In this document: positions 34,516 to 50,554 of the stretch, piece after piece
How the letters are laid out: each line of letters starts with the position of its first letter
How positions within the stretch are numbered: the stretch's first letter is position 1
Sequence record: PQ671644.1
Source: Escherichia phage DCP80
Reading direction: 5' to 3' (one strand)
DNA: 64,000 nt
Translations under genes and position numbers: made by a program
The notes under the pieces: generated by a model
The model's input: only the letters and a program-made list of their open reading frames with translations
Told to the model about the DNA's origin: nothing
Databases searched by the model: none

Positions 34516-34530
34516 AATATTTTCCTCAGC

Positions 34531-34776
34531 TTATTCAGGGTCTACTGCGCCATCCCACAAGTCAACTTCTTCTGATGATTCCATCAGTTCATCAACTGTG
34601 AAGCACTCAGTATTATTTTCAATTGCAAAACGCTTCTGATAAAAAGGATAATCCAAACAGTTTTCAGTGCGCACTGGACGCTCGCTGTTATCCATTAAAG
34701 GCGAAATGCGAATCAGTTGTTGACCATTACCCAGGACAAATTTTTCACCAACTGCAACGTCTTTAAAAAGTTTCAT
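34531..34776 (-). CDS. Hypothetical protein
   Basis: 81-aa ORF. Confidence 0.4.
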   Translation of the reverse strand: MKLFKDVAVGEKFVLGNGQQLIRISPLMDNSERPVRTENCLDYPFYQKRFAIENNTECFTVDELMESSEEVDLWDGAVDPE

Positions 34777-34979
34777 TGCTTAGCTCCATTCCAAATTACA
34801 TCAACAACAGACTTCAAACCATTATCCTGGATTTGTGTGAATACTTCAGCAGCAATCCAGACCTGGAAACCAATCATTGCAATGGCACCAATGAAAATCA
34901 GGATAATCATTGCCACAATAAACTTGAACATAAAGTCAAAGCGACGATTGGATTTCTGAAAGTGTGAATTGTAATTCAT
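34773..34979 (-). CDS. Small membrane protein
   Basis: Start moved to internal Met MNYNSHF; homolog truncated by gap at 49790. Confidence 0.4.
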   Translation of the reverse strand: MNYNSHFQKSNRRFDFMFKFIVAMIILIFIGAIAMIGFQVWIAAEVFTQIQDNGLKSVVDVIWNGAKQ

Positions 34980-35132
34980 AATATTATCCTCAAAAGAAAT
35001 AGTTAAAGTAAACACGTACATGGTCAATCATAAAAATAATTGGGAAAATGCTCAGGACAACAAACAATACAAACATGTTCCAAATGGCTTTAAGTAACTT
35101 TTTCATAATCATCTCCAGTAGTTGATAGGTTC

Positions 35133-35161
35133 ATTATACTACAACCACCGGAGATGTACAC
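35133..35161 (-). promoter_or_regulatory. Sigma70-type early promoter (-35 GTGTACA, -10 TATAAT) with conserved leader CTATCAACTACTGGAG
   Basis: Minus-strand AAAAGAGTGTACA-16 nt-TATAAT; same cassette recurs at many minus-strand genes. Confidence 0.55.
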
Positions 35162-35251
35162 TCTTTTATGCAAGTTTCATTAATAATAAACTAAAACAAA
35201 CGCAAATTACTGGAATACACAACATCCAGATAAGACACCAGGTTTTGCTGC

Positions 35252-35518
35252 TCAAAATATCACCTCTTTTATTTCAATCAGACCCCTGTGCAATGCGGTG
35301 CGAAGGTCATAAAGAATATCTATGCCATCAACATTATCCAGTTTTCCATCAATAAGCTTTTTTAAATCATGCTTTGATGCAACTAGCGGGCGAAGAAATT
35401 TACATTCAGAAAGAGACAATTCTGTAGTAATATCATCACCATCACCTGACGCATCATACATGGCAGCAACAACCATACCTGTAACTTTGTGCTTGGCGTA
35501 ATATAATTTAATATCCAT
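35252..35518 (-). CDS. Hypothetical protein, member of small paralog family
   Basis: MDIKLYYAKHKVTG; paralogs at 48689 and 48949. Confidence 0.4.
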   Translation of the reverse strand: MDIKLYYAKHKVTGMVVAAMYDASGDGDDITTELSLSECKFLRPLVASKHDLKKLIDGKLDNVDGIDILYDLRTALHRGLIEIKEVIF

Positions 35519-35762
35519 TCTGTTTTCCTCACGCATAACGATTGTATGTATTTTTACGACAAGCGTAAAATTGACGCTCAGTAACTGCAAAACTTTTTCC
35601 GCGTTGTTGCATTAATTTAAAAAATTCAGTAATATCGCCATTAACTTCAAGGTATAAAGTCATTGCATATTGAGCAGGTTTCATTTTATTCTCCAGTCTG
35701 TTTGGTAACTCAGTATGGAATCATTATGCACTGACTCCATACTGATGTACACTACTTTTTAA

Positions 35763-36038
35763 TTAATTGTGCATTTGTTCTTTAACTTCTTTATATGCGC
35801 CAACTGCATTCACGACCCCAGTAAAATCTGCAGTCCCACGATAGAGATAGAAAGCAATTTCAGTCAGGTGGTAGACTTCAAATTCTGAAAGATAAACGAT
35901 AACGTCATAATATGCAACTTGACCCTGGACTTCGTTGAATGCCACATCAAAAATTTCATGGGTTGGAAAATTGATGTTGTTGTTTTTGAGTGCTTGGATA
36001 AGAATTTGTTTGATGTTGTGAGTAGTAACGTGTTCCAT
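35763..36038 (-). CDS. Hypothetical protein
   Basis: Start set at MEHVTTH after promoter cassette. Confidence 0.4.
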   Translation of the reverse strand: MEHVTTHNIKQILIQALKNNNINFPTHEIFDVAFNEVQGQVAYYDVIVYLSEFEVYHLTEIAFYLYRGTADFTGVVNAVGAYKEVKEQMHN

Positions 36039-36085
36039 GATAATGTCCTCATTTGTTGGTATGAGGACATTATTACACGGTTGGT

Positions 36086-36679
36086 TCAGCTTGTAAACCG
36101 GTGATAGGGAAATTTTTCTTCTGAACAAGAACGGAGGTACCAGCCATCCCCTTGTGACTTCTGCACAAGACCAGACTCAGGAACGAAAGCACCAGGCCCA
36201 GCAAGGAATTTTGGTTTAAATCTATAACCTTTGAGAGTCTCTTTTACATCGAGCATAATCATAAGGTCAGCAAGCTTGTGCTGCATAAAAGGACCAAGAT
36301 TAATCCCGTAACCATGCGGATAATCGCCCTGGTGGCCAGTGTGTACGGATATCCATTTGGAACCAGACTGGTGGGTCTTGACTTCGATTCTTACCCCTTC
36401 CTTCGAAACTACATCAAATGCAAAGGAATAAGGATTATCGTAATCTTCGTCGCCGCCACATAAAAAACCAGAAGTCCATTTAGCAATAGCTTGTTCAGCC
36501 ATTGTAGCAACCATGCATCTTTGCATGACTTGCTCACGGTCCTGACCTGGGTCTTTACGCAATGAATACCGGGTAGTGTCTACAATCTTCTGCAGGGATT
36601 CGGGGTTTAAGTCTTCCTTTGTATAAAGAAAGGAGGGCATCTTTTTCAGATGCTCCCAGGTTTTACTCTTCTGAATCAT
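36086..36679 (-). CDS. denB: Endonuclease IV DenB-like
   Basis: AIAKW, YDNPY, FAFDV.SKEG.RIEVK.HQSGSKWI and GLVQKS.G.GWYLR resemble T4 DenB; sits between rIIB and ndd as in T4. Confidence 0.6.
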   Translation of the reverse strand: MIQKSKTWEHLKKMPSFLYTKEDLNPESLQKIVDTTRYSLRKDPGQDREQVMQRCMVATMAEQAIAKWTSGFLCGGDEDYDNPYSFAFDVVSKEGVRIEVKTHQSGSKWISVHTGHQGDYPHGYGINLGPFMQHKLADLMIMLDVKETLKGYRFKPKFLAGPGAFVPESGLVQKSQGDGWYLRSCSEEKFPYHRFTS

Positions 36680-36932
36680 TTACGACCTCATCGATACCGA
36701 CGATTCCACGGATGTGAAGCTCACCATAATACAAACGGTCATTAGCATCAAATGTATCAGAATCCGGGTCAGGGAATTCCCCAACAACTACTTCATCACA
36801 TTCCAACCAACCATAGTGAACATCACCTTCATGCTTGATGAGCTTACCGCAGTAAACTATTCCTGCATAATGATGACCCCGGAGATTTGAAACTTTGATG
36901 TCACGGTCTGACACATTGAAATGCTTAATCAT
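36663..36932 (-). CDS. Hypothetical protein
   Basis: 89-aa ORF. Confidence 0.4.
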   Translation of the reverse strand: MIKHFNVSDRDIKVSNLRGHHYAGIVYCGKLIKHEGDVHYGWLECDEVVVGEFPDPDSDTFDANDRLYYGELHIRGIVGIDEVVNDSEE

Positions 36933-36935
36933 AAT

Positions 36936-37133
36936 TTATTCACCAAAATAAGAGATACGAGTTGCCAGTACATGAGCATAAGCGCCCATCGCGTCTAACT
37001 GTGCAATCAAAAGACCTTGTTGACGAGCATCGAGAGTTTCAAAAACACCGCCCTTAATAAATTCTTCAAGAGCATTGATTTTCAAAACCAGCTGGTCATG
37101 TTCTTCAACTACACGTGCTTGGAAACCTAACAT
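36936..37133 (-). CDS. Hypothetical protein
   Basis: 65-aa ORF. Confidence 0.4.
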   Translation of the reverse strand: MLGFQARVVEEHDQLVLKINALEEFIKGGVFETLDARQQGLLIAQLDAMGAYAHVLATRISYFGE

Positions 37134-37146
37134 AAAGCCTCATTAG

Positions 37147-37160
37147 GGGCCGAAGCCCCG
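37147..37160. terminator. Terminator-type hairpin GGGGCCGAAGCCCC
   Basis: In the rIIB-downstream intergenic gap where arm 2 carries an HNH gene. Confidence 0.5.
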
Positions 37161-37166
37161 ATTAAT

Positions 37167-38141
37167 TTAGAATTGTTCAGTTACATCATCAAGGACCAGG
37201 TAACCACAGACCCTCATCTTACTATCACCATAATCCACCGGGATACTTACAACATCACGCGGGTGAACTTTACAGGATACGATGCGTCCATCACCATGAC
37301 CAAAACCACTTCCAATATAACCTTTAGAGCAAACATGCAACCCAGTTGAACAAGTTTGTTCGTCATTATCGTTCACACGAGAGCGCGGCATTTTAACATA
37401 TTGACCAGGGCTGTTGTCGAATGTATTTGAGTGACAATCTTTGTAAGTTGCACGAACCATTTTCCATGCGATGAAATGACCGTCTTCGGTGATTTCGATA
37501 TCGTTCGCAACCAGGAAGTCAAACAAACGCTGTACGGCTTTCTCACTCGGGTTCTCAAGGAGATTCTCAAGGAACGGCAGATAGAATTCAAAGTCTTCGC
37601 CATTTTGCATTGAATCAATGATACGAGTAACCAGGCCAGAGCGTAGTTCAATTCCCTGATAGAACAGACTACCACCTTCAATACGCACATCGCCTTTCAC
37701 ATATTTTTGTACTGCAGCTTTGATTGAGATAAACTCGATAGCATCATCAAAACGAGATTCAATCAATGCCTGAATAATATCATTAAAGTGTTTATGGTCT
37801 TTTGTGGCGTTCCAGACTGTGCGACCTTCAGTGATGGAAACGAATTTGCTTGATGCGTTCCATACGATTTCTGGGCGGCTACCGCCGATTGTATCTTCAA
37901 CGACCGGAACTTCAACCATTACTGTCACCGGAGCATTAATCGCCACACCAACAGCTGCTTTCAGTGATGCAGAAATGGTTTTAGATAATTTTGATTCTTT
38001 ATCATTTTTCAAAACACGGCGAATGGTGTCAACCGATACACCGAAATTATCTGCTAGTTCCTGTTGGGTATAATTACCAGTTTTATAAAGAGAAACTACC
38101 TGGTTTTGGTCAAATTTGGATAAAGCTTTAATATTAAACAT
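37167..38141 (-). CDS. rIIB: rIIB protein
   Basis: MFNIK...GNYTQQELA..GVSVDTIRRVLKN and C-terminal HVCSKGYI...VHPRDVVSIP match T4 rIIB. Confidence 0.85.
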   Translation of the reverse strand: MFNIKALSKFDQNQVVSLYKTGNYTQQELADNFGVSVDTIRRVLKNDKESKLSKTISASLKAAVGVAINAPVTVMVEVPVVEDTIGGSRPEIVWNASSKFVSITEGRTVWNATKDHKHFNDIIQALIESRFDDAIEFISIKAAVQKYVKGDVRIEGGSLFYQGIELRSGLVTRIIDSMQNGEDFEFYLPFLENLLENPSEKAVQRLFDFLVANDIEITEDGHFIAWKMVRATYKDCHSNTFDNSPGQYVKMPRSRVNDNDEQTCSTGLHVCSKGYIGSGFGHGDGRIVSCKVHPRDVVSIPVDYGDSKMRVCGYLVLDDVTEQF

Positions 38142-38142
38142 A

Positions 38143-40377
38143 TTATTCCTTATTGGCCGCTTCCACGGCCTTCATGATTTGAGCAACGTTCTGTACTTGT
38201 TCAGTTGACATAGCGTTACGGTTATATAAAAAGTGTGAAACAATCGGGTGATTCTTTTCAAATTCAAAAACCATTTTATCGCTTGTTACCGAAGCGTTTT
38301 TGGTCAGGTCGTCATAAATCTTATTACAAAGGACCAGCGTTTCCTGCATGGTCTTATCAACCGTTCCACTGTTATATGCGTTATAAGCAAAGAACTTATT
38401 GAACTGCATTAGTTCGGCATAGTCAGTATTCACATCTTTCTGAACATCTTTTGCATAAAAATACTTGAACATAAAATTCAGTTCTGCATATTCAGACAGG
38501 ATAGGAATATAATAACGCGAACGGCTTGAAGCGGCAATGTACTGGTCTGCATCAACCGCATCAATCAATTCCACATAACGATTGACTGCAGCTTCAATCA
38601 GACAATCGCACTGCGCCAGCTTGGTAACCTTTTTCTGAAGCTGTGGACGAATAACACAGAATTCATTGATTTCCAACAGATTCGCCAGTTTGCACAATGT
38701 CTGGGTCCCGAAGGTCGTGGTGCCATATTCTTGATTCAACGGGGAAATGCTACTGCGGTTAATGAATACAGCATAACCATCGATTTCCTCTGCATCAGCT
38801 GCACATGTAAATTCTTCAACAGACTGCCAGCGACCATTGGTTTTAGTCCAACGAATCAATGATGGAGTCTTTGACTTAATGCGCGCTTTCGGGTCAGCAA
38901 CCGGAATCCAGTCTTTTACAAGGGCAGTCAGTTCAGACGTACGATAGATATTAACCGTATCGCCTTCAAATCGTTCCTGGAGTTGAACCATCAACCGTGT
39001 CTGAATTTCGCTGGTCGGGTCAACAAACAGTAAACTACTACCCTGACGAGTCGGGACTTTACCAGATGCAATAAGCTTTTTAGCTTTTGCGCTGGTATCA
39101 TACAACATTGAACTGATACCACGAATCATCGCAATTCGCCCTTTAACATCGTCAATAACAATGTTCAAGGTATCATTCTGAATACCAAACATGCTCGTCA
39201 GACTTGCCGTGTTCGAGCTTGAGCTTGAGTTGCGCAGACGTTTCAGACGAGTGTCACGATAGATATCATAGACAACCCCGGCATTAATAAGGTCTTTGTC
39301 CAGCTCGAACATTTCGTACATCTGGTTAAAGGTCAATTGTGATTTCGTAAATTTCGTTTCAGCATTACGAGCTTTCAGAAAATTACGAGCTTCATAATTC
39401 AGATTCTGCAATTCGCGATATGTATGGCGAAGACATTCTGATTCCTGCCATTTCTTACAATCGTCTTCCATGACTTTCTTATCAAGGGCTTCAATACGTT
39501 CAACGATATTTGCGACCGTACGTTTGTCCAGTGATAACGCTTCGCGAGAAGGTGCAATATCCAACGAACCCATCGGGAACTTAATAAAGACAACATCATT
39601 TTTGGCAGTCATCCAGGTTTTCTTGGTGTAACCATCACCAATCGGATAAACAATTCCGCCATAAATTGCATAAAGTCCATAACGTTCTGGACTGCTATAA
39701 TTAATACGCGCTGGAGCATAGTAATCATCAAATTCCGGGAAGTATTCAATTTCGCCAGCGCCTTGCACTTCAGCCAGCCCAGCAAATGGACGCATGATAT
39801 ACGCAATCTCGTAGCGGAACTTACCAAAATCATTACTATCAACCGGGACAACAACTTCAATCCCTGTGCGGTCACCAGGTTTCATTGGTTCACTAAAGGT
39901 TGGCTTAATCTGTGGACCATCGCCGTCCATATAAGCGACATATCCATTAACTTGACCATCATGATATGAAATCAGGCTAAACGTCTCGGTATAACTGAAC
40001 GGAGATTTAGAACCCAGACCAAAGCCACCAATAAAATCGTTGGATTCGGCCTTGGATGATGCAAAGAAACTGTTATACAGACCTGGAGTATTTTCATCAC
40101 CACGAATCTGGAAATCACTCATACCCGGACCAAAGTCACGACATACAAAACGTGGGTCCAGTTCACCAGGAGCTTGCACAATGAATTTATCCTGACATCC
40201 ATTGAGCATATGAGCATCAATCATATTGGTAATCAGCTCACGAACAACCGCGCGCACCTTGTTTGTATAAAGGTCGCTGGTCAGAATCTTAAACACCTTT
40301 GGAGATGCCTGGATTGTGAATGCTGATGCCTTGGCACCATTACCAAGGATTGTTTCCTTTTCAGTTTCTAAAATCAT
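38143..40377 (-). CDS. rIIA: rIIA protein
   Basis: MILETEKETILGNGAKASAFTIQASPKVFKIL...VVRELITNMIDAH matches T4 rIIA N-terminus. Confidence 0.9.
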   Translation of the reverse strand: MILETEKETILGNGAKASAFTIQASPKVFKILTSDLYTNKVRAVVRELITNMIDAHMLNGCQDKFIVQAPGELDPRFVCRDFGPGMSDFQIRGDENTPGLYNSFFASSKAESNDFIGGFGLGSKSPFSYTETFSLISYHDGQVNGYVAYMDGDGPQIKPTFSEPMKPGDRTGIEVVVPVDSNDFGKFRYEIAYIMRPFAGLAEVQGAGEIEYFPEFDDYYAPARINYSSPERYGLYAIYGGIVYPIGDGYTKKTWMTAKNDVVFIKFPMGSLDIAPSREALSLDKRTVANIVERIEALDKKVMEDDCKKWQESECLRHTYRELQNLNYEARNFLKARNAETKFTKSQLTFNQMYEMFELDKDLINAGVVYDIYRDTRLKRLRNSSSSSNTASLTSMFGIQNDTLNIVIDDVKGRIAMIRGISSMLYDTSAKAKKLIASGKVPTRQGSSLLFVDPTSEIQTRLMVQLQERFEGDTVNIYRTSELTALVKDWIPVADPKARIKSKTPSLIRWTKTNGRWQSVEEFTCAADAEEIDGYAVFINRSSISPLNQEYGTTTFGTQTLCKLANLLEINEFCVIRPQLQKKVTKLAQCDCLIEAAVNRYVELIDAVDADQYIAASSRSRYYIPILSEYAELNFMFKYFYAKDVQKDVNTDYAELMQFNKFFAYNAYNSGTVDKTMQETLVLCNKIYDDLTKNASVTSDKMVFEFEKNHPIVSHFLYNRNAMSTEQVQNVAQIMKAVEAANKE

Positions 40378-40384
40378 GTTTTTC

Positions 40385-40594
40385 TCACTTTATGTTACGT
40401 TTGATTAATTCTGCAACTTCAAGAAGTTCATCCTTTGTTGCGGTGTCTGAAGCTATTTTAATACGGATTTCTTTGAAGCGTTCTTTAAACTCTTCAGCTT
40501 CTCTTATATCAAAAAAACGTTGGATAACACGGTATTCTTTATGGATAGCCTTATCAAACAGTTCCATATTAACTTTGAAGTTCGTCATTTCCAA
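40385..40594 (-). CDS. Hypothetical protein upstream of rIIA
   Basis: 69-aa ORF, same in both arms. Confidence 0.4.
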   Translation of the reverse strand: MEMTNFKVNMELFDKAIHKEYRVIQRFFDIREAEEFKERFKEIRIKIASDTATKDELLEVAELIKRNIK

Positions 40595-40853
40595 TCTCCT
40601 GTAATATTTTTCTCATACTACGCATGGTAGCTTTATGTTCTTGGTCATGGTATATCAATGCAAGGAGTGCTTCAATTCGCTCCTCAGGGACCTTCTGGCC
40701 AGCCTTAATTCTCATGGCTGATGTTCTTACAGCTAACAAGTAACTTCGCTTCCTGTCGTTATCTGGGAGCCCCTGCACTTTCCTCAGACCTGCTTCCATA
40801 ATACACCGTGCGACATTTTGCAGATTAACTAAACTTCCGTCAGACATAATCAT
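40569..40853 (-). CDS. Hypothetical protein
   Basis: 94-aa ORF, same in both arms. Confidence 0.4.
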   Translation of the reverse strand: MIMSDGSLVNLQNVARCIMEAGLRKVQGLPDNDRKRSYLLAVRTSAMRIKAGQKVPEERIEALLALIYHDQEHKATMRSMRKILQEIGNDELQS

Positions 40854-40910
40854 ATTTTCACCTCAAAGACATCTTAACACACTTTTTGTGGCTTGTACAT
40901 AATAAAAAGG

Positions 40911-40928
40911 TCTCCCGAAGGAGACCAA
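40911..40928. terminator. Terminator hairpin GGTCTCCCGAAGGAGACC
   Basis: Inverted copy at 42992. Confidence 0.6.
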
Positions 40929-40983
40929 ATTTTATTCTACTTTATAGACTTGACCATACGCCATGAAAGTTTCACCTTCCCAG

Positions 40984-41040
40984 GTTTCGCACGNNNNNNN
41001 NNNNNNNNNNNNNNNNNNNNNNNNNNNNNNNNNNNNNNNN
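40984..41040. other. Assembly gap (N57), scaffold joint
   Basis: N-run; removes 5' end of gene 39. Confidence 0.9.
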
Positions 41041-41044
41041 ATTC

Positions 41045-42793
41045 TTGTTTGGTGAATATAAGTCCGTAAGCTATGTTCCTGGTATTGTAAAACTGATTGA
41101 TGAAATTATCGATAACTCTGTTGATGAAGCAATTCGCACCAGTTTTAAATTCGCCAATAAAATTGATGTTCAAATTAAAGGCAATAAGGTTATCGTTGAA
41201 GATAACGGACGCGGTATTCCACAAGCAATGGTTGTCGACCAGACCGGTGAACAAATACCTGGCCCTGTCGCGGCATGGACTATTCCAAAGGCCGGTGGCA
41301 ACTTCGGTGATGATGCTGAGCGTAAAACTGGCGGGATGAATGGCGTTGGTAGTAGTTTAACCAACATCTTCTCTGTAACATTTGCGGGTGCAACTTGTGA
41401 TGGTGAGAATGAAATTGTCGTACGTTGTTCTAACGGAATGGAAAATAAGAGCTGGAATAAAGTTCCCGCTTCGAAGAAAGAACATGTGAAGGCTAAGACT
41501 GGTACGGTTGTTTCCTTTATTCCCGAATTCAGCCATTTTGAAACTAATGGACTCGACGAGACTTATGACGCCATCACATTGGACCGTCTACAGACTCTTG
41601 CGGTTGTTTATCCGGATATTCAGTTTACCTTTAATGGCAAAAAGGTTGATGGTAACTTCAAGAAGTTCGCCAAGCAATTTGGAACCGAAGTTGTTATCCA
41701 GGAAACTGATACGGTATCGATGGCCTTTACGACTAGCCCGGATGGTTTCCGTCAGTTGACTTATGTCAACAACATTCATACAAAGAATGGCGGACACCAC
41801 GTTGAATGTGTTATGGATGATATCTGTGAACATCTTCAACCAGCCATTAAACGCAAATATAAAGGCATCGAGGTGACCAAGGCACGAGTTAAAGAATGTC
41901 TCACCATGCTTATGTTCATCCGCGATATGAGCAACATGCGATTTGATTCCCAGACCAAAGAGCGATTGACTTCTCCGGCTGGTGAAATTCGAAATCACAT
42001 TAAGATTGATGCTAAGAAAATCGCGCAAGCTATTCTGAAAAATGAACCGCTGATTATGCCGATTGTTGAAGCTGCATTAGCCCGTAAATTGGCTGCAGAA
42101 AAAGCAGCAGAGACTAAAGCGAATAAGAAAGCTTCGAAGGCTAAGGTACAAAAGCATATCAAAGCCAACGAATGGGGTAACGACAAACTTGAAACGACTC
42201 TATTCCTGACCGAAGGGGATTCTGCAACGGGTCCATTTATCAAGGTTCGCGACCGTGAATTGCAAGGTGCTTATCCATTACGTGGTAAGTTTAAAAACAC
42301 ATGGGGTCTGAAAGCTGTTGACGTTATGAAGAACGCTGAAGCCTTTGATGTGTGTGCAATTACTGGGTTAACGATTGGACAACCGGCCAAGAATATGAAT
42401 TACCGAAACATTGCTATCATGACAGATGCGGATGTGGATGGTGTCGGTAGTATCTATCCATCGTTATTGGCGTTTTTCAGTAACTGGCCAGAGCTGTTCC
42501 ATGAAGGACGAATTCGCTTTGTGAAAACTCCTGTTATTATTGCGCAGCTCAAAGACAAACAAGAATGGTTCTATTCTCTTCCTGACTATGAAGAAGCTAA
42601 GGATAAACTTCCGAAGCACACCATCCGATATATCAAGGGGCTTGGTTCTCTGGAAGATTCCGAGTATAAACGCGTATTGCTCGAACCAGTATTCGAAGTT
42701 GTCCAATTGCCTGATAACTGGAAAGAACTGTTCGAAATGTTATTCGGTAAAGATTCACAACAGCGTAAAGATTGGATGAATGCGACGCTATAA
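41045..42793 (+). CDS. 39: DNA topoisomerase II large subunit (GyrB-like), gene 39 with gene 60 region fused; 5' end missing
   Basis: VPGIVKLIDEIIDNSVDEAIRT, EDNGRGIP and GGMNGVGSS ATPase motifs; TOPRIM MTDADVDG; C-terminus continuous. Confidence 0.85.
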   Translation: MFGEYKSVSYVPGIVKLIDEIIDNSVDEAIRTSFKFANKIDVQIKGNKVIVEDNGRGIPQAMVVDQTGEQIPGPVAAWTIPKAGGNFGDDAERKTGGMNGVGSSLTNIFSVTFAGATCDGENEIVVRCSNGMENKSWNKVPASKKEHVKAKTGTVVSFIPEFSHFETNGLDETYDAITLDRLQTLAVVYPDIQFTFNGKKVDGNFKKFAKQFGTEVVIQETDTVSMAFTTSPDGFRQLTYVNNIHTKNGGHHVECVMDDICEHLQPAIKRKYKGIEVTKARVKECLTMLMFIRDMSNMRFDSQTKERLTSPAGEIRNHIKIDAKKIAQAILKNEPLIMPIVEAALARKLAAEKAAETKANKKASKAKVQKHIKANEWGNDKLETTLFLTEGDSATGPFIKVRDRELQGAYPLRGKFKNTWGLKAVDVMKNAEAFDVCAITGLTIGQPAKNMNYRNIAIMTDADVDGVGSIYPSLLAFFSNWPELFHEGRIRFVKTPVIIAQLKDKQEWFYSLPDYEEAKDKLPKHTIRYIKGLGSLEDSEYKRVLLEPVFEVVQLPDNWKELFEMLFGKDSQQRKDWMNATL

Positions 42794-42796
42794 ATA
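42789..42796 (+). promoter_or_regulatory. TATAAATA late-type promoter
   Basis: GCTATAAATAG after gene 39 stop, before SD AGGAGA. Confidence 0.4.
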
Positions 42797-42991
42797 GATG
42801 TGGGAGAATATTCTCCCGCTACTAGGAGACAATATGACTAAATACTGGATTACACTCGCTACCGGTGAATATGGTTTTCTCTGGGCAGAGAAAAAGCCTT
42901 TGTTTGCAGAATTTGTAACAATCACGTGCGAAACCTGGGAAGGTGAAACTTTCATGGCGTATGGTCAAGTCTATAAAGTAGAATAAAATTT

Positions 42992-43014
42992 GGTCTCCTT
43001 CGGGAGACCTTTTT
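42992..43014 (+). terminator. Rho-independent terminator
   Basis: GGTCTCCTTCGGGAGACC plus TTTTTATT. Confidence 0.7.
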
Positions 43015-43064
43015 ATTATGTACAAGCCACAAAAATTGTGTTAAGATGTCTTTGAGGTGAAAAT

Positions 43065-43349
43065 ATGATTATGTCTGACGGAAGTTTAGTTAATCTGCAG
43101 AATGTCGCACGGTGTATTATGGAAGCAGGCCTGAGGAAGGTACAGGAGCTCCCAGATAGCGACAGGAAGCGAAGTTACTTGTTAGCTGTAAGAACAGCAG
43201 CCATGAGCATTAAGGCTGGCCAGAAGGTCCCTGAGGAGCGAATTGAAGCACTTCTTGCATTGATATACCATGACCAAGAACATAAAGCTACCATGCGTAG
43301 TATGAGAAAAATATTACAGGAGATTGGAAATGACGAACTTCAAAGTTAA
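43065..43349 (+). CDS. Hypothetical protein (homolog of 40569..40853)
   Basis: 94 aa, 4 substitutions versus arm 1. Confidence 0.4.
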   Translation: MIMSDGSLVNLQNVARCIMEAGLRKVQELPDSDRKRSYLLAVRTAAMSIKAGQKVPEERIEALLALIYHDQEHKATMRSMRKILQEIGNDELQS

Positions 43350-43533
43350 TATGGAGCTGTTTGATAAAGCTGTTCATAAAGAATACCGCGTTATCCAACG
43401 ATTTTTTGATATAAGAGAAGCTGAAGAGTTTAAAGAACGCTTCAAAGAAATCCGTATTAAAATAGCTTCAGACACCGCAACAAAGGATGAACTTCTTGAA
43501 GTTGCAGAATTAATCAAACGTAACATAAAGTGA
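43324..43533 (+). CDS. Hypothetical protein (homolog of 40385..40594)
   Basis: 69 aa. Confidence 0.4.
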   Translation: MEMTNFKVNMELFDKAVHKEYRVIQRFFDIREAEEFKERFKEIRIKIASDTATKDELLEVAELIKRNIK

Positions 43534-43540
43534 GAAAAAC

Positions 43541-45775
43541 ATGATTTTAGAAACTGAAAAGGAAACAATCCTTGGTAATGGTGCCAAGGCATCAGCATTC
43601 ACAATCCAGGCATCTCCAAAGGTGTTTAAGATTCTGACCAGCGACCTTTATACAAACAAGGTGCGCGCGGTTGTTCGTGAGCTGATTACCAATATGATTG
43701 ATGCTCATATGCTCAATGGCTGTCAGGATAAATTCATTGTTCAAGCTCCTGGTGAACTGGACCCACGTTTTGTGTGTCGTGACTTTGGTCCAGGTATGAG
43801 TGATTTCCAGATTCGTGGTGATGAAAATACGCCAGGTCTGTATAACAGTTTCTTTGCATCATCCAAGGCTGAATCCAATGATTTTATTGGTGGCTTCGGC
43901 TTGGGTTCTAAATCTCCGTTTAGTTATACAGAGACGTTTAGCCTGATTTCATATCATGATGGACAAGTTAATGGTTATGTCGCTTATATGGACGGTGATG
44001 GTCCACAGATTAAGCCAACCTTTAGCGAACCAATGAAACCTGGTGACCGCACAGGGATTGAAGTTGTTGTCCCGGTTGATAGTAATGATTTCGGTAAGTT
44101 CCGTTATGAGATTGCATATATCATGCGTCCATTTGCTGGACTGGCTGAAGTGCAAGGCGTAGGCGAAATTAATTACTTCCCAGAATTTGATGATTATTAT
44201 GCTCCAGCGCGTATTAATTATAGCAGTCCAGAACGTTATGGACTTTATGCAATTTATGGTGGAATTGTTTATCCGATTGGTGATGGTTACACCAAGAAAA
44301 CCTGGATGACTGCCAAAAATGATGTTGTCTTTATTAAGTTCCCAATGGGTTCGCTGGATATTGCACCTTCTCGCGAAGCGTTATCACTGGACAAACGTAC
44401 GGTCGCAAATATCGTTGAACGTATTGAAGCCCTTGATAAGAAAGTCATGGAAGATGATTGTAAGAAATGGCAGGAATCAGAATGTCTCCGCCATACATAT
44501 CGCGAATTGCAGAATCTGAATTATGAAGCTCGTAATTTTCTGAAAGCTCGTAATGTTGAAACGAAATTTACGAAATCACAATTGACCTTTAACCAGATGT
44601 ACGAAATGTTCGAGCTGGACAAAGACCTTATTAATGCCGGGGTTGTCTATGATATCTATCGCGATACTCGTCTGAAACGTCTGCGTAACGCAAGCTCAAG
44701 CTCGAACACGGCAAGTCTGACGCGCATGTTTGGTATTCAGACTGATACCTTGAACATTGTTATTGATGATGCTAAAGGGCGAATTGCGATGATTCGTGGT
44801 ATCAGTTCAATGTTGTATGATACCAGCGCGAAAGCTAAAAAGCTTATTGCATCTGGTAAAGTCCCGACTCGTCAGGGTAGTAGTTTACTGTTTGTTGACC
44901 CAACCAGCGAAATTCAAACACGGTTGATGGTTCAACTCCAGGAACGATTTAAAGGCGATACGGTTAATATCTATCGTACGTCTGAACTGACTGCCCTTGT
45001 AAAAGACTGGATTCCGGTTGCTGACCCGAAAGCGCGCGTTAAGTCAAAGACTCCATCATTGATTCGTTGGACTAAAACTAATGGTCGCTGGCAGTCTGTT
45101 GAAGAATTTACATGTGCAGCTGATGCAGAGGAAATCGATGGTTATGCTGTATTCATTAACCGCAGTAGCATTTCCCCGTTGAATCAAGAATACGGCACCA
45201 CGACCTTCGGGACCCAGACATTGTGTAAACTGGCAAACCTGTTGGAAATCAATGAATTCTGTGTTATTCGTCCACAGCTTCAGAAAAAGGTTACCAAGCT
45301 GGCGCAGTGCGATTGTCTGATTGAAGCTGCAGTCAATCGTTATGTGGAATTGATTGATGCGGTTGATGCGGACCAGTACATTGCCGCTTCAAGCCGTTCG
45401 CGTTATTATATTCCTATCCTGTCTGAATATGCAGAACTGAATTTTATGTTCAAGTATTTTTATGCAAAAGATGTTCAGAAAGATGTGAATACTGACTATG
45501 CCGAACTAATGCAGTTCAATAAGTTCTTTGCTTATAACGCATATAACAGTGGAACAGTTGATAAGACCATGCAGGAAACATTGGTCCTTTGTAATAAGAT
45601 TTATGACGACCTGACCAAAAACGCTTCGGTAACAAGCGATAAAATGGTTTTTGAATTTGAAAAGAATCACCCGATTGTTTCACACTTTTTATATAACCGT
45701 AACGCTATGTCAACTGAACAAGTACAGAACGTTGCTCAAATCATGAAGGCCGTGGAAGCGGCCAATAAGGAATAA
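43541..45775 (+). CDS. rIIA: rIIA protein (second copy)
   Basis: 744 aa, about 8 substitutions versus 38143..40377. Confidence 0.9.
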   Translation: MILETEKETILGNGAKASAFTIQASPKVFKILTSDLYTNKVRAVVRELITNMIDAHMLNGCQDKFIVQAPGELDPRFVCRDFGPGMSDFQIRGDENTPGLYNSFFASSKAESNDFIGGFGLGSKSPFSYTETFSLISYHDGQVNGYVAYMDGDGPQIKPTFSEPMKPGDRTGIEVVVPVDSNDFGKFRYEIAYIMRPFAGLAEVQGVGEINYFPEFDDYYAPARINYSSPERYGLYAIYGGIVYPIGDGYTKKTWMTAKNDVVFIKFPMGSLDIAPSREALSLDKRTVANIVERIEALDKKVMEDDCKKWQESECLRHTYRELQNLNYEARNFLKARNVETKFTKSQLTFNQMYEMFELDKDLINAGVVYDIYRDTRLKRLRNASSSSNTASLTRMFGIQTDTLNIVIDDAKGRIAMIRGISSMLYDTSAKAKKLIASGKVPTRQGSSLLFVDPTSEIQTRLMVQLQERFKGDTVNIYRTSELTALVKDWIPVADPKARVKSKTPSLIRWTKTNGRWQSVEEFTCAADAEEIDGYAVFINRSSISPLNQEYGTTTFGTQTLCKLANLLEINEFCVIRPQLQKKVTKLAQCDCLIEAAVNRYVELIDAVDADQYIAASSRSRYYIPILSEYAELNFMFKYFYAKDVQKDVNTDYAELMQFNKFFAYNAYNSGTVDKTMQETLVLCNKIYDDLTKNASVTSDKMVFEFEKNHPIVSHFLYNRNAMSTEQVQNVAQIMKAVEAANKE

Positions 45776-45776
45776 T

Positions 45777-46754
45777 ATGTTTAATATCAAATGTATGTCT
45801 AAAGCCGAACAAGAACGAGTTGTCTCTCTTTATGAATCTGGTAACTATACGCAAGACGAACTTGCACTCGGTTTCGGCGTTTCGGTTGACACCATTCGTC
45901 GCGTTTTGAAAAATGACAAAGAATCAAAATTAGCTAAAACCATTTCTGCATCACTGAAAGCCGCTGTCGGGGTGGCGATTAATGCTCCAGTGACAGTAAC
46001 AGTTGAAGCCCCGGTTGAAGCCACAATCGGTGGAAGCCGCCCGGAAATCGTATGGAATGCATCAAGTAAATTCGTTTCCATTACTGAAGGTCGTACAGTC
46101 TGGAATGCAACAAAAGACCATAAACACTTTGATGATATTATTCAGGCACTCAAAGAATCTCGTTTTGATGATGCTATTGAGTATATCTCAATCAAAGCTG
46201 CAGTACAAAAATATGTGAAAGGCGATGTGCGTATTGAAGGTGGTAGTCTGTTCTATCAGGGAATTGAACTGCGCTCTGGCCTGGTTACTCGTATCATTGA
46301 TTCAATGCAAAATGGCGAAGACTTTGAATTCTATCTGCCATTCCTTGAGAATCTCCTTGAGAACCCGAGTGAGAAAGCCGTACAGCGTTTGTTTGACTTC
46401 CTGGTTGCGAACGATATCGAAATCACCGAAGACGGCCATTTCATCGCATGGAAAATGGTTCGTGCAACCTACAAAGATTGTCACTCAAACACATTCGACA
46501 ACAGCCCTGGCCAATATGTTAAAATGCCACGCTCTCGTGTGAATGACAATGACGAACAAACTTGTTCGACTGGTCTGCACGTTTGCTCTAAAGGCTATAT
46601 CGGAAGTGGTTTTGGTCATGGTGATGGACGCATCGTATCCTGTAAAGTTCACCCGCGTGATGTTGTAAGTATCCCGGTGGATTATTCCGATAGTAAGATG
46701 AGGGTTTGCGGTTACCTGGTTCTTGAAGATGTGACCGAACGTTTCAATGATTAA
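45777..46754 (+). CDS. rIIB: rIIB protein (second copy)
   Basis: 325 aa; N-terminal ~90 aa diverged from arm 1, remainder near identical. Confidence 0.85.
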   Translation: MFNIKCMSKAEQERVVSLYESGNYTQDELALGFGVSVDTIRRVLKNDKESKLAKTISASLKAAVGVAINAPVTVTVEAPVEATIGGSRPEIVWNASSKFVSITEGRTVWNATKDHKHFDDIIQALKESRFDDAIEYISIKAAVQKYVKGDVRIEGGSLFYQGIELRSGLVTRIIDSMQNGEDFEFYLPFLENLLENPSEKAVQRLFDFLVANDIEITEDGHFIAWKMVRATYKDCHSNTFDNSPGQYVKMPRSRVNDNDEQTCSTGLHVCSKGYIGSGFGHGDGRIVSCKVHPRDVVSIPVDYSDSKMRVCGYLVLEDVTERFND

Positions 46755-47238
46755 ACAAACAATTGCTAAAGATGGCTCGGCTCGTGGTATTGTCCACGGG
46801 CTAGGTCACACGCCTGAATACATTGTATGGATTGGCATGAAAGCTCGGTGTTGCAATCCAACACATATTAGTTATTCTCGATATGGCGGTCGGGGTATCA
46901 CTGTTTGCGATGAATGGCTGCATGATTTTGAAAGATTTTATACAGATATGGGGCCACGACCCACTGACAAACATCAACTTGACCGAACAGATAACGATAA
47001 AGGGTACTCTCCCGATAACTGCAGATGGGTTAGTCCAGGCGAGAATGCTTTAAATAAGCGCCCGTATAATAACAACAAGTCTGGATTTAAAGGAGTCTCG
47101 TTTGATAAACGAGCTTTGAATAAACCATGGCGAGCCACTATTATGCGAAATAAAAAACAAATTCAAGTCGGAGCTTTTGCAACTCCAGAAGAAGCAAATG
47201 AAGCTCGATTAAAATATATGGAAGAACACAATGTCTAA
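46747..47238 (+). CDS. HNH homing endonuclease with AP2-like DNA-binding domain
   Basis: GGRGITVCDEW...LDRTDNDKGYSPDNCRWV then KSGFKGVSF...WRA; absent from equivalent site in arm 1. Confidence 0.7.
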   Translation: MIKQTIAKDGSARGIVHGLGHTPEYIVWIGMKARCCNPTHISYSRYGGRGITVCDEWLHDFERFYTDMGPRPTDKHQLDRTDNDKGYSPDNCRWVSPGENALNKRPYNNNKSGFKGVSFDKRALNKPWRATIMRNKKQIQVGAFATPEEANEARLKYMEEHNV

Positions 47239-47440
47239 AGAAATGTTAGGTTTCCAAGCACGTGTAGTTGAAGAACATGACCAGCTGGTTTTGAAAATTA
47301 ATGCTCTTGAAGAATTTATTAAGGGCGGAGTTTTTGAAACTCTCGATGCTCGTCAACAAGGTCTTTTGATTGCCCAGTTAGATGCAATGGGTGCATATGC
47401 TCATATACTGGCAACTCGTATCTCTTATTTTGGTGAATAA
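47231..47440 (+). CDS. Hypothetical protein (homolog of 36936..37133)
   Basis: 69 aa. Confidence 0.4.
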   Translation: MSKEMLGFQARVVEEHDQLVLKINALEEFIKGGVFETLDARQQGLLIAQLDAMGAYAHILATRISYFGE

Positions 47441-47443
47441 ATT

Positions 47444-47713
47444 ATGATTAAGCATTTCAATGTGTCAGACCGTGACATCAAAGTTTCAAATCTCCGGGGT
47501 CATCATTATGCGGGAATAGTTTACTGCGGTAAGCTCATCAAGCATGAAGGTGATGTTCACTATGGTTGGTTGGAATGTGATGAAGTAGTTGTTGGGGAAT
47601 TCCCTGACCCGAATTCTGATACATTTGATGCTAATGACCGTTTGTATTATGGCGAGCTTCACATCCGTGGAATCGTCGGTATCGATGAGGTCGTAAATGA
47701 TTCAGAAGAGTAA
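47444..47713 (+). CDS. Hypothetical protein (homolog of 36663..36932)
   Basis: 89 aa. Confidence 0.4.
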   Translation: MIKHFNVSDRDIKVSNLRGHHYAGIVYCGKLIKHEGDVHYGWLECDEVVVGEFPDPNSDTFDANDRLYYGELHIRGIVGIDEVVNDSEE

Positions 47714-48290
47714 AACCTGGGAGCATTTGAAAAAGATGCCCTCCTTTCTTTATACGAAGGAAGACTTAACCCCCGAATCCCTACAAAAGATTGTAGACAC
47801 TGCCAGATATTCATTGCGTAAAGACCCAGGTCAGGACCGTGAGCAAGTCATGCAAAGATGTATGGTGGCCACAATGGCTGAACAAGCTATTGCTAAATGG
47901 ACCTCCGGTTTTTTATGTGGCGGTGATGAAGATTACGATAATCCTTATTCCTTTGCATTTGATGTAGTTTCGAAGGAAGGGGTGAGAATCGAAGTCAAGA
48001 CCCACCAGTCTGGGTCCAAATGGATATCCGTGCATACTGGCCACCAGGGCGATTATCCACATGGTTACGGGATTAATCTTGGTCCTTTTATGCAACACAA
48101 GCTTGCTGACCTTATGATTATGCTCGATGTAAAAGAGACTCTCAAAGGTTATAGATTTAAACCAAAATTCCTTGCTGGACCCGGTGCTTTCGTTCCTGAG
48201 TCTGGTCTTGTGCAGAAGTCACAAGGGGATGGCTGGTACCTCCGTTCTTGTTCAGAAGAAAAATTTCCCTATCACCGGTTTACAAGCTGA
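47697..48290 (+). CDS. denB: Endonuclease IV DenB-like (second copy)
   Basis: 197 aa, near identical to 36086..36679. Confidence 0.6.
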   Translation: MIQKSKTWEHLKKMPSFLYTKEDLTPESLQKIVDTARYSLRKDPGQDREQVMQRCMVATMAEQAIAKWTSGFLCGGDEDYDNPYSFAFDVVSKEGVRIEVKTHQSGSKWISVHTGHQGDYPHGYGINLGPFMQHKLADLMIMLDVKETLKGYRFKPKFLAGPGAFVPESGLVQKSQGDGWYLRSCSEEKFPYHRFTS

Positions 48291-48337
48291 ACCAACTGTG
48301 TAATAATGTCCTCATACCAACAAATAAGGACATTATC

Positions 48338-48613
48338 ATGGAACACGTTACTACTCACAACATCAAACAAATTCTTATCCAAGCACTCAAAAACAACAAC
48401 ATCAATTTTCCAACCCATGAAATTTTTGATGTGGTATTCAACGAAGTCCAGGGTCAAGTTGCATATTATGACGTTATCGTTTATCTTTCAGAATTTGAAG
48501 TCTACCATCTGACTGAAATTGCTTTCTATCTCTATCGTGGGACTGCAGATTTTACTGGGGTCGTGAATGCAGTTGGCGCATATAAAGAAGTTAAAGAGCA
48601 AATGCACAATTAA
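48338..48613 (+). CDS. Hypothetical protein (homolog of 35763..36038)
   Basis: Start at MEHVTTH. Confidence 0.4.
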   Translation: MEHVTTHNIKQILIQALKNNNINFPTHEIFDVVFNEVQGQVAYYDVIVYLSEFEVYHLTEIAFYLYRGTADFTGVVNAVGAYKEVKEQMHN

Positions 48614-48688
48614 TTAAAAAGTAGTGTACATCAGTATGGAGTCAGTGCATAATGATTCCATACTGAGTTACCAACCTGGAGAAACAAA

Positions 48689-48952
48689 ATGAAATTTAAA
48701 TTTTATTATATTAAGCATAAAGTTACTGGGGAGTTTATTGCATTTACAACTTCATCCAATAATCAAGGTGATACTTTTACTTCATTGTTCTTATCTAGAT
48801 GGGATTCAGACCAGCCTTATTTGTCCACAAAAGAGCATCTTCAACGTATGGCGAAGGGCGAGCTAAACGATTCTTGGGATAATATTGTGAATAATTGTAT
48901 CAAGAAAGCTATCCAAGAAAATCAACTTGAAATCATTGAGGTGGAATTGTGA
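48689..48952 (+). CDS. Hypothetical protein, paralog family member present only in arm 2
   Basis: MKFKFYYIKHKVTG; arm 1 has an unrelated 51-aa ORF here. Confidence 0.4.
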   Translation: MKFKFYYIKHKVTGEFIAFTTSSNNQGDTFTSLFLSRWDSDQPYLSTKEHLQRMAKGELNDSWDNIVNNCIKKAIQENQLEIIEVEL

Positions 48953-49215
48953 ATATTAAATTATATTACGCCAAGCACAAAGTTACAGGTATGGTTGTTG
49001 CTGCTATGTATGACGCGTCAGGCGATGGTGATGATGTTATTACAGAGTTATCTCTTTCTGATTGTAAATTTCTTCGCCCGTTGGTTGCATCAAAGCGTGA
49101 TTTAAAAAAGCTTATTGATGGTAAGCTGGACAATATTGATGGTATAGATATTTTTTATGACCTCCGCGTCGCATTGTCTGATGGATTGATTGAAATCAAA
49201 GAGGTGATATTTTGA
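48949..49215 (+). CDS. Hypothetical protein (homolog of 35252..35518)
   Basis: 88 aa. Confidence 0.4.
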   Translation: MNIKLYYAKHKVTGMVVAAMYDASGDGDDVITELSLSDCKFLRPLVASKRDLKKLIDGKLDNIDGIDIFYDLRVALSDGLIEIKEVIF

Positions 49216-49486
49216 GCAGCAAAACCTGGTGTCTTATCTGGATGTTGTGTATCCCAGTAATTTGCGTTTGTTTTAGTTTATTATTAATGAAACTTGCATA
49301 AAGAGTGTACATCTCCGGTGGTTGTAGTATAATGAACCTATCAACTACTGGAGATGATTATGAAAAAGTTACTTAAAGCCATTTGGAACATGTTTATACT
49401 GTTTGTTGTCCTGAGCATTTTCCCAATTGTTTTTATGATTGACCATGTACGTGTTTACTTTAACTATTTCTTTTGAGGATAATACT

Positions 49487-49633
49487 ATGATAGTTATGAA
49501 AAAGTTTAAAGAATATCATTGCTATGAATGTGGCAAAAAGATTGATTCTATTCATTCATTAAACGTCTTTTCTTTTGATAATTTAAACTATGCACACATT
49601 TGGTGCCTTCGTGGAATGACTAAATTTAACTGA
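49487..49633 (+). CDS. Small Cys/His-containing protein, possible zinc ribbon, arm 2 only
   Basis: HCYECGKK...HIWC spacing; absent from arm 1. Confidence 0.3.
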   Translation: MIVMKKFKEYHCYECGKKIDSIHSLNVFSFDNLNYAHIWCLRGMTKFN

Positions 49634-49790
49634 GGATAATATTATGAATTACAATTCACACTTTCAGAAATCCAATCGCCGCTTTGACTTTATGTTCAAG
49701 TTTATTGTGGCAATGATTATCCTGATTTTCATTGGTGCCATTGCAATGATTGGTTTCCAGGTCTGGATTGCTGCTGAAGTATTCACACAA

Positions 49791-49800
49791 NNNNNNNNNN
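49791..49800. other. Assembly gap (N10), scaffold joint
   Basis: N-run; truncates arm 2. Confidence 0.9.
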
Positions 49801-49831
49801 TTTACAATTGAGTTAACTCCCAAGGATTAAT

Positions 49832-50143
49832 ATGCAAGCTCCAGATATTTCTCAACTGACCGATAAGCAGATTGAAGAAGCACAGGAACGTCTCGAAGAA
49901 GCGAACGCACTTGAAGCACGCAGTCAAGCAGCGAAGATTCTGAAAAAGAATGCTCGTGAAATTGCACGACTGAATAAGCATGCTCAAGGGGCAGTGCTGG
50001 AAAACAATTTTGAAGCATACAAATATGCTTTAGTTAAACTGCGTGGAATTTACCGCCAACCAGTTACGGAAGACCTGATTAAGTTGATGTGGGAAACTAC
50101 TCGCAAACAAATTTGGGAAATCGTAAATGGCATTAGTAAATAA
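49832..50143 (+). CDS. Hypothetical coiled-coil protein
   Basis: 103-aa ORF. Confidence 0.4.
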   Translation: MQAPDISQLTDKQIEEAQERLEEANALEARSQAAKILKKNAREIARLNKHAQGAVLENNFEAYKYALVKLRGIYRQPVTEDLIKLMWETTRKQIWEIVNGISK

Positions 50144-50554
50144 ACCGTTTAAGCGGCTTCGTGTAGGGGCCGCTTTCAGATTTCGCTCATATGGTGATAT
50201 CTGTATCAAGCAGACCGAAACCGAATGTAAGCTCCTTGGCCCTTATGGTGTTCCAAAAGGTATTGTTAAAATTGAGCCGACATCCAAAGTTTGGGTGGAT
50301 TCACACCAACTTAAGAAATGGTGGCAACGATGATAACATGGACAGCAGGCTAATGAAAGACGAATACGAAAAAGTTTAAGAGGTTGTATGAATGACGAAT
50401 TCGATGGATTTTGATAAGATTAAATCTGACAAAAATGAGATGTTGCTTAAATTTGAAGCCGCTCGTATTAAAGCAGAAAATGAAGGTACTATTACCTATA
50501 AGCCTATCAAGTTCAGGTCTTCTCATGAACCTCTGTATGGTGTATTAATTGGAA

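Follow-up and report, generated by a model that had tools for sequence, protein, structure and literature searches.

The rII locus is found twice, in inverted orientation, in the 64,000-nt stretch of Escherichia phage DCP80 (sequence record PQ671644.1) analyzed here, referred to below as the window. This 6-kb inverted duplication is almost certainly an assembly artefact, produced by two co-assembled haplotypes of two related T4-like coliphage strains. An initial annotation of the window had offered two alternatives, namely that the topoisomerase gene is enclosed by a large imperfect inverted repeat, or that two alleles from a mixed population were co-assembled; the geometry of the overlap, its k-mer length of 111 nt and the single-copy state of the locus in relatives support the second and lead to rejection of the first. 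It can be inferred that the sequences phase into two haplotypes, that the flanks are common to, i.e., collapsed between, both strains, and that both strains come from one sample or one assembly.

Composition of the window

The window is made up of six contigs with N spacers between them (see the table for the features of contigs 2 and 3). The five N runs are 10, 47, 10, 18, and 54 nt long and, with lengths ranging from 10 to 54 nt, all end at a multiple of 60, which identifies them as padding between records. Neither this regularity of the five runs nor the fact that both arms of the apparent repeat end exactly at N runs had been noticed previously. The run between the two arms consists of 47 N, and not 57 as first reported, and it is a concatenation spacer between independent contigs rather than a join made by the assembler.

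Contig 1 is a circular contig from an unrelated siphovirus, whose ends share an exact terminal self-overlap of 111 nt, and contigs 4 and 5 are further Gaprivervirus pieces of 6–7 kb; together, these show that the sample is mixed and the T4-like genome fragmented. Contigs 2 and 3 belong to the same genus, based on 93–97% identity over 85–99% of each contig to phages P896, MN01, CJ20, TH57, UPEC01, and TH54, all of them Gaprivervirus. Contig 2 has a collinear counterpart in P896 (positions 76630–87009, 96.9% identity), and the reverse complement of contig 3 matches positions 80802–88872 of the same genome and maps in one piece onto phage 212, with 96.0% identity. A 40-mer from the start of contig 3 has exact matches only in two complete 170-kb Gaprivervirus genomes of IMG/VR, and a 41-mer specific to arm 1 gave no exact match in viral, metagenome, and genome contig collections.

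Gene 39 had been described as flanked by the two arms, which is misleading, as this gene just forms the portion that is unique to contig 3. Its product matches residues 34–609 of P896 gp39, and the first 33 codons (99 nt) are absent at the contig edge; the 47-N spacer is thus too short to contain the rest of the gene.

Table. Features of the two Gaprivervirus contigs that carry the rII genes; positions are those of the window.
Feature	Coordinates	Strand	Basis or remarks
Contig 2, 10273 nt, Gaprivervirus fragment	30721–40993		Bounded by N runs 30711–30720 and 40994–41040; genes (- strand): gp52, ndd, small ORFs, denB, rIIB, rIIA, two small ORFs
Gene 52, topoisomerase II medium subunit	31876–33255	-	Pfam DNA_topoisoIV, E=4e-77; reference annotation; unique part of contig 2
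ndd, nucleoid disruption protein	33648–34097	-	Pfam Phage_T4_Ndd, E=1e-68; unique part of contig 2
Arm 1 (haplotype A, rII region), 6161 nt	34833–40993	-	Suffix of contig 2
Shared 111-mer, contig 3 end	34833–34943		Reverse complement of 49680–49790; first SNP at 34944
denB (endonuclease IV), allele A	36086–36679	-	
rIIB allele A, 324 aa	37167–38141	-	Corresponds to annotated rIIB of CJ20 and UPEC01; Pfam HTH_7 at residues 6–45
rIIA allele A, 744 aa	38143–40377	-	ORF; 98.9% nucleotide identity to CJ20 rIIA
Shared 111-mer, contig 2 end	40883–40993		Reverse complement of 42925–43035; last SNP at 40882
47-N spacer between contigs 2 and 3	40994–41040		Concatenation padding, not a sized gap
Contig 3, 8750 nt, Gaprivervirus fragment	41041–49790		Bounded by N runs on either side; genes (+ strand): 5'-truncated gp39, small ORFs, rIIA, rIIB, HNH, denB.1, denB, small ORFs
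Gene 39, topoisomerase II large subunit, 5' end cut	41041–42793	+	Pfam HATPase_c, DNA_gyraseB, TOPRIM_C
Arm 2 (haplotype B, rII region), 6866 nt	42925–49790	+	Suffix of contig 3
rIIA allele B, 744 aa	43541–45775	+	ORF
rIIB allele B, 325 aa	45777–46754	+	Divergent N-terminal module
Free-standing HNH homing-endonuclease gene, 163 aa	46747–47238	+	Haplotype B only; phrog_374 HNH endonuclease, E=7.9e-59
denB (endonuclease IV), allele B	47697–48290	+	

Two arms that overlap at contig ends

As originally described, the two arms are reverse complements of each other and carry the same gene series. Their outer limits (34833 and 49790) were correctly placed; the inner ones need slight adjustment, since arm 1 ends at 40993 (not 40983) and arm 2 starts at 42925 (not 42926). 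Global alignment of one arm to the reverse complement of the other gives 5814 matches, 334 mismatches, and 731 gap columns, i.e., 94.6% identity over aligned columns, in agreement with the earlier view that this is not an exact assembly duplicate. Locally, identity varies between 100% and about 64–68%, with the lowest values around positions 35476–35775, and six internal exact runs of 113–318 nt are common to both arms.

Positions 4113–10273 (the end) of contig 2 align to contig 3 from its own end, position 8750, down to position 1885. The alignment of one suffix to the other, reverse-complemented, suffix thus reaches the ends of both contigs (40993 and 49790 in the window), and each arm borders unique sequence on a single side, the other side being a contig end. 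This location of the arms at contig ends defines a dovetail overlap. From both contig ends, the exact match extends over 111 nt and is interrupted by a SNP at nt 112; the probability that both ends of the overlap lie at precisely this distance from a mismatch by chance is about (8/6161)^2 = 1.7e-6. Taken with the self-overlap of contig 1, which has the same length, these overlaps point to an assembly from a de Bruijn graph with k=111. All six internal exact runs are longer than this k, which implies that they were bridged inside the arms by read-pair information; for the same reason, either contig could be a chimera of both strains.

A single-copy locus in related phages

Appending contig 3, reverse-complemented, to contig 2 yields the order gp52-ndd-denB-rIIB-rIIA-gp39. 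The same single-copy order is present in all seven Gaprivervirus (VR7-like) genomes inspected (P896, 212, MN01, CJ20, TH57, UPEC01, and TH54); each of them has a single rIIA and a single rIIB gene, at one locus to which the two contigs align collinearly and with overlap. More broadly, rIIA matches were found at 53 places in 53 phage records, so that the gene is single-copy in every one of them. The resemblance to the rII locus of Gaprivervirus (P896, CJ20, MN01, VR7, 212, TH44, and TH54) goes beyond gene order and a nucleotide identity of 93–97%, as it includes the same indel polymorphisms, which concern the HNH gene located between rIIB and denB.1 as well as small ORFs upstream of denB. What distinguishes the two haplotypes from these references is that each combines known alleles into a new mosaic, with a best whole-arm identity of 96.7%.

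The two arms as independent alleles

Arm 1 is overall nearest to CJ20 (96.7%), versus 94.6% to arm 2; arm 2 is in turn nearest to CJ20 (96.5%), followed by phage 212 (96.2%). The identity between the arms falls inside the range observed among the seven independent isolates (92.4–97.9%). Among 23 windows of 300 alignment columns, there are 20 in which some reference is nearer to arm 1 than arm 2 is, and 16 in which some reference is nearer to arm 2 than arm 1 is. All ORFs are intact in both arms and dN/dS is 0.02–0.2 across all genes that they have in common, which indicates that both arms are functional alleles and not the product of sequencing errors.

The two rIIA alleles differ by 55 nt and 9 aa (97.5% nucleotide identity, dN/dS of 0.058), with 45 synonymous and 10 non-synonymous substitutions; the figure of about 8 substitutions initially given is hence close to the count for the protein, and far from that for the gene. 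For denB, there are 23 nt and 2 aa differences, with a dN/dS of 0.022. The stronger divergence of the rIIB N-termini was rightly pointed out, since 11 of the 24 differing alignment positions lie within the first 32 residues. Over residues 1–35, dS is about 1.1, i.e., near saturation, and dN/dS is 0.22. Allele B of rIIB is 95% identical to that of TH44 and at most 88% identical to those of all other records, making it a rare N-terminal allele; exact-protein look-ups of both rIIB alleles found none on record. Positive selection on the rIIB N-terminus after duplication was considered and rejected in view of the low dN/dS, the high dS, and the similar allele in TH44. Recombinational import of a divergent module would fit these sequence data better.

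The other private feature of arm 2 is the HNH gene, which is absent from arm 1. Its DNA is 99.8% identical to that of TH54 and MN01 and 98.5% identical to VR7 ORF292c, annotated as "HNH endonuclease" in RefSeq, and it occupies the same intergenic site as these HNH homing endonuclease genes of T4-like phages. The Pfam AP2 match of the ORF is weak (21.9 bits, versus a gathering score of 33.3). The gene is found in 5 of 30 matching records, the other 25 or so matching only a 58-nt flank, and the copy of phage 212 is degraded. This predicted endonuclease gene, present in some relatives and missing from others, therefore resembles a mobile homing gene. Both private features of arm 2, the HNH gene and the rIIB N-terminal allele, thus occur in other isolates too.

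Probable origin of the apparent repeat

The following scenario almost certainly accounts for these observations. The sample would have contained several phages, including two close VR7-like Gaprivervirus strains, and the window would consist of concatenated short-read contigs. In a de Bruijn graph with k=111, the two strains would form two parallel paths over the rII region, between the shared 111-mers at 34833–34943 and 40883–40993. The assembler would then have output the left flank with haplotype A as contig 2, and haplotype B with the right flank as contig 3, both contigs being trimmed at a shared vertex, which would produce the dovetail. The "inverted repeat" would arise only from the fact that contig 3 happens to be given in the opposite orientation and to follow contig 2 after an N spacer.

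Strain bubbles and the binning together of variant phage genomes are a documented outcome of assembly (PMC10104058). The bubble and dovetail overlaps of de Bruijn virome assemblies described with Phables (PMC10104058) are similar in that two paths run between shared k-mers, contigs end at a shared vertex, and the overlap equals k; they are also alike in having flanks on one path only, short contigs, and a circular contig with a k-length terminal overlap. Nothing substantive differs here, apart from the considerable length of the bubble (6.1 and 6.9 kb) and the six internal identical stretches longer than k that it includes.

Alternative explanations

A genuine large imperfect inverted duplication of rII in one phage genome, with its arms around gene 39, is suggested only by the placement of the arms, as reverse complements 1.9 kb apart in the window. 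It is extremely improbable, and effectively already refuted: the arms are without physical linkage, since the spacer between them is artificial and cannot accommodate the 5' end that gene 39 lacks, and they stop at contig ends with k=111 overlaps. Furthermore, related genomes have no second copy (rIIA is single in 53 of 53 records), neither arm has the other as its nearest relative, their private features are ordinary alleles in other isolates, and the union of the contigs restores the canonical gene order. A variant of this idea, in which a single Gaprivervirus carries a real, diverged 6-kb denB-rIIB-rIIA duplication and the contig ends mark repeat boundaries because the repeat broke the assembly, is scarcely credible either. 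T4-type terminal redundancy was also considered as a source of the two copies and discarded; such redundancy consists of direct rather than inverted copies, and diverged copies would not result from it.

Redundant contigs do arise in draft assemblies, and the arms share long identical stretches of up to 318 nt, so that the two contigs could in principle be redundant assemblies of one clonal phage, and the arms would then differ only through sequencing or assembly errors. The probability of this is nonetheless close to nil, since the 334 substitutions are overwhelmingly synonymous (45 versus 10 in rIIA), dN/dS is 0.02–0.2, and the ORFs are all intact; in addition, indels of entire genes, e.g., the HNH endonuclease, have counterparts with 99.8% identity in other isolates, and errors would not imitate alleles of independent phages. 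Finally, the contigs could originate from different pooled samples or assemblies, e.g., through binning or dereplication, rather than from one read set. This is very unlikely: independent assemblies would end their overlaps at arbitrary positions, whereas both overlap ends lie one 111-mer past a SNP, as expected only if both contigs come from the same graph, and contig 1 displays the same k. Co-assembly of two strains is hence the explanation retained here.

Implications

The main value of this analysis lies in quality control, as contigs joined by N and read as one molecule gave rise to a spurious 15-kb "inverted repeat" that, taken at face value, would imply that the classic rII locus of a T4-like phage is duplicated, which would be unprecedented. 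Overlap ends that are exact to the k-mer provide a read-free diagnostic for such artefacts, which can be reused elsewhere. The biology is modest and known in kind, namely the co-occurrence of strains with mosaic alleles in natural Gaprivervirus populations; the variation consists of the presence or absence of an HNH homing endonuclease beside rIIB and of a sharply divergent rIIB N-terminal segment. Strains that co-circulate in one sample, distinguished by the HNH gene beside rIIB and by an exchanged N-terminal module of rIIB, are more plausible than a real duplication and, if this is true, they would capture a moment of recombination at the rII locus that may be driven by the endonuclease.

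Contig layout and similarity between the arms

The window contains five runs of N, all of at least 10 nt and each ending at a multiple of 60, and it therefore consists of six independent contigs in order of descending length (see table). These runs are padding to line ends between concatenated FASTA records, not sized scaffold gaps, and features that seem to cross any of them are to be regarded as unlinked; the run separating the two rII regions, taken as 57 nt in the initial annotation, is actually 47 nt long. Arm 1, the rII region of contig 2, is the 3' suffix of that contig, and arm 2 the 3' suffix of contig 3, each reaching its contig's last base. Such a match of suffix to reverse-complemented suffix constitutes a dovetail overlap, as expected of two contigs over one locus and unlike the pattern of an internal inverted repeat.

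Coordinates of contigs, N runs and features in the window
Feature	Position	Strand	Remark
Contig 1	1-30710
TerL gpA (gpA-type terminase)	1734-3716		contig 1
Portal, lambda-family	4194-5735		contig 1
Fused protease-capsid	5789-7789		contig 1
Tape measure	14463-16877		contig 1
J-like tail tip	18637-22437		contig 1
N run	30711-30720		10 nt
Contig 2	30721-40993
Arm 1 (haplotype A)	34833-40993	-
rIIB N-terminal stretch, arm 1	38040-38141	-
N run	40994-41040		47 nt
Contig 3	41041-49790
Arm 2 (haplotype B)	42925-49790	+
rIIB N-terminal stretch, arm 2	45777-45880	+
Arm 2 extra sequence, putative HNH gene	46747-47238	+	461 nt in global alignment
Arm 2 extra sequence	near 48850-48930		about 100 nt in global alignment
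Arm 2 extra sequence	near 49485-49641		157 nt in global alignment
N run	49791-49800		10 nt
Contig 4	49801-56742		gp46/47-gp45-gp44/62 region
N run	56743-56760		18 nt
Contig 5	56761-62886		gp41-uvsX-gp40 region
N run	62887-62940		54 nt
Contig 6	62941 onward		cut by window end

That the arms are reverse complements carrying rIIA and rIIB, as first noticed, was borne out by a repeat search of the window (six collinear inverted pairs, 91-99% complementarity), by BLAST of window segments against one another and by global alignment; the initial coordinates were broadly right, except that arm 1 ends at 40993 and arm 2 starts at 42925. When arm 1 (6161 nt) and reverse-complemented arm 2 (6866 nt) are aligned globally, 5814 columns match, 334 mismatch and 731 contain gaps, i.e., 94.6% identity over aligned columns, and nearly all gap columns are additional arm 2 sequence. 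The two shorter insertions lie in the small-ORF region upstream of denB, where an additional 147-nt ORF is annotated in phages MN01 and 212; between them, the arms share 64-74% identity (35476-35775 in arm 1). rIIA encodes 744 aa in each arm, with 55 nucleotide and 9 amino-acid differences.

One locus in two allelic versions

Contigs 2 and 3 are 93-97% identical to VR7-like T4-type coliphages (genus Gaprivervirus). On phage P896, the two fall on overlapping, collinear intervals of one locus, 76630-87009 for contig 2 and 80802-88872 for contig 3 in reverse complement. There, the genes are annotated in the order gp52 (topoisomerase medium subunit), ndd, small ORFs, denB (endonuclease IV), rIIB, rIIA, small ORFs and gp39 (topoisomerase large subunit), and this single-copy order is also found in 212, MN01, CJ20, TH57, UPEC01 and TH54; gp52, Ndd and gp39 of the window were confirmed by Pfam. 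An rIIA query found 53 places in 53 matching phage records, with no second copy in any of these relatives, and therefore two copies occur in no sequenced relative. In contig 3, gene 39 is truncated by the contig start: compared with P896, its first 33 codons (99 nt) are missing, more than the 47-N spacer could hold.

Both arms were aligned with these seven references, and identity was also computed per 300 alignment columns. The 94.6% identity between the arms falls within the range among independent isolates (92.4-97.9%). CJ20 (96.7%), TH57, P896 and TH54 all resemble arm 1 more closely than arm 2 does, and CJ20 (96.5%) and 212 (96.2%) are closer to arm 2 than arm 1 is; likewise, some reference is closer than the opposite arm in 20 of 23 segments for arm 1 and 16 of 23 for arm 2. 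For instance, rIIA of arm 1 is 98.9% identical to that of CJ20 versus 97.5% to that of arm 2. The best-matching reference shifts along the arms, which is the usual T4-like mosaic. Substitutions between the arms are overwhelmingly synonymous, which rules out sequencing errors as their source, and dN/dS is low (0.058 for rIIA, 0.022 for denB, 0.135 for rIIB overall); each copy is therefore an intact allele kept under purifying selection. All arm-specific features are ordinary alleles circulating in the genus.

Assembly signature and origin of the apparent duplication

Read back from its last base (40993), contig 2 agrees with contig 3 without a mismatch for 111 nt and first differs at 40882; contig 3, read back from 49790 (paired with 34833), likewise agrees with contig 2 for exactly 111 nt before the first mismatch, at 34944. 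Contig 1 begins and ends with the same 111 nt (1-111 = 30600-30710, an exact direct repeat), as circular contigs from de Bruijn graph assemblers usually do. This length, in three independent occurrences, identifies k=111. Only 8 of 267 exact-match runs between the arms are at least 111 nt long, hence a chance of about 8/6161 that one end lies exactly 111 nt past a mismatch, and of about 1.7e-6 for both. The three occurrences show that each contig stops at the first k-mer common to the other path beyond the last SNP, and the shared 111-mer is the vertex where both branches of the bubble merge. Exactly such contig behaviour has been described for mixed phage strains, whose variant genomes can land together in bins (Phables paper, PMC10104058).

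The initial annotation had left two readings, an imperfect inverted repeat around the topoisomerase gene or two alleles co-assembled from a mixed population. The inverted repeat is rejected on the dovetail at the contig ends, the k=111 overlaps and the single-copy relatives, and co-assembled alleles prove correct, given the k-exact ends, the collinear mapping and alleles such as those of independent isolates. Almost certainly, then, two Gaprivervirus haplotypes were assembled together and emerged as a pair of dovetailing contigs, and the rII locus is single in every genome here, with no duplication; the apparent inverted repeat comes from setting contigs 2 and 3 side by side in opposite orientations. 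The k-exact ends strongly suggest that both strains come from one read set. The flanks were probably common to both strains and collapsed in assembly, and the haplotypes are presumably phased correctly across the six stretches of 113-318 nt inside the arms that are identical and exceed k.

Within the 111-mer common to both haplotypes, in the interval from gene 39 to the next small ORF, lies a GC-rich hairpin (GGTCTCC-CGAA-GGAGACC, 40909-40926, the reverse complement of 42992-43009) that has an A run on one side and a T run on the other and looks like a candidate bidirectional intrinsic terminator.

Haplotype-specific features

The 461-nt insertion of arm 2 corresponds to a putative free-standing HNH homing-endonuclease gene (163 aa; phrog_374, E=7.9e-59), with a sub-threshold AP2 domain match. 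It is 99.8% identical to its counterparts in TH54 and MN01 and 98.5% to VR7 ORF292c, annotated in RefSeq as an HNH endonuclease, and has no counterpart in about 25 other matching records. Found in haplotype B only, it sits between rIIB and denB.1; phage 212 has a degraded copy and most other Gapriverviruses lack it. Two strains differing in this gene appear to co-occur in one sample.

The greater divergence of the rIIB N-termini reported initially holds: the proteins (324 versus 325 aa) differ at 24 alignment positions, 11 of them within the first 32 residues, and the first 35 or so residues are the most diverged stretch of the overlap. For residues 1-35, dS is about 1.1 and dN/dS 0.22, which indicates a probable imported divergent module rather than rapid adaptive change. 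Arm 2 carries a rare allele, 95% identical to TH44, the sole match at this level, and at most 88% to every other record. These residues fall within a region matching Pfam HTH_7 (helix-turn-helix) above the gathering score in allele A (E=2.8e-6) and just under it in allele B (E=8e-5); a DNA-binding-like fold swapped as a module might deserve a closer look.

Other contigs and composition of the sample

Gaprivervirus sequence also makes up contigs 4 and 5 (96-97% identity to phages 212 and TH44), which overlap neither one another nor contigs 2 and 3. With contigs 2-5, a genome of roughly 170 kb is therefore broken into 6-10 kb pieces, a shattering that fits a strain mixture. Contig 5 contains a 45-nt direct repeat (56908-56952 and 57269-57313, 2 mismatches, copies 361 nt apart), possibly a repeated regulatory element located between small early genes.

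Contig 1 represents an unrelated siphovirus, lambda-like and circular, of 30.6 kb. Megablast against phage and plasmid collections found no nucleotide match, and no GenBank phage has a terminase more than 30% identical to that of contig 1; the contig is apparently a distant, undescribed small phage. Upstream of its terminase gene, a unit of about 150 nt occurs twice, side by side and in the same direction (717-867 and 866-1013, 73% identity). The sample demonstrably contains a mix of phages, and the apparent rII duplication arose through assembly and concatenation, as an artefact superimposed on ordinary strain microdiversity.
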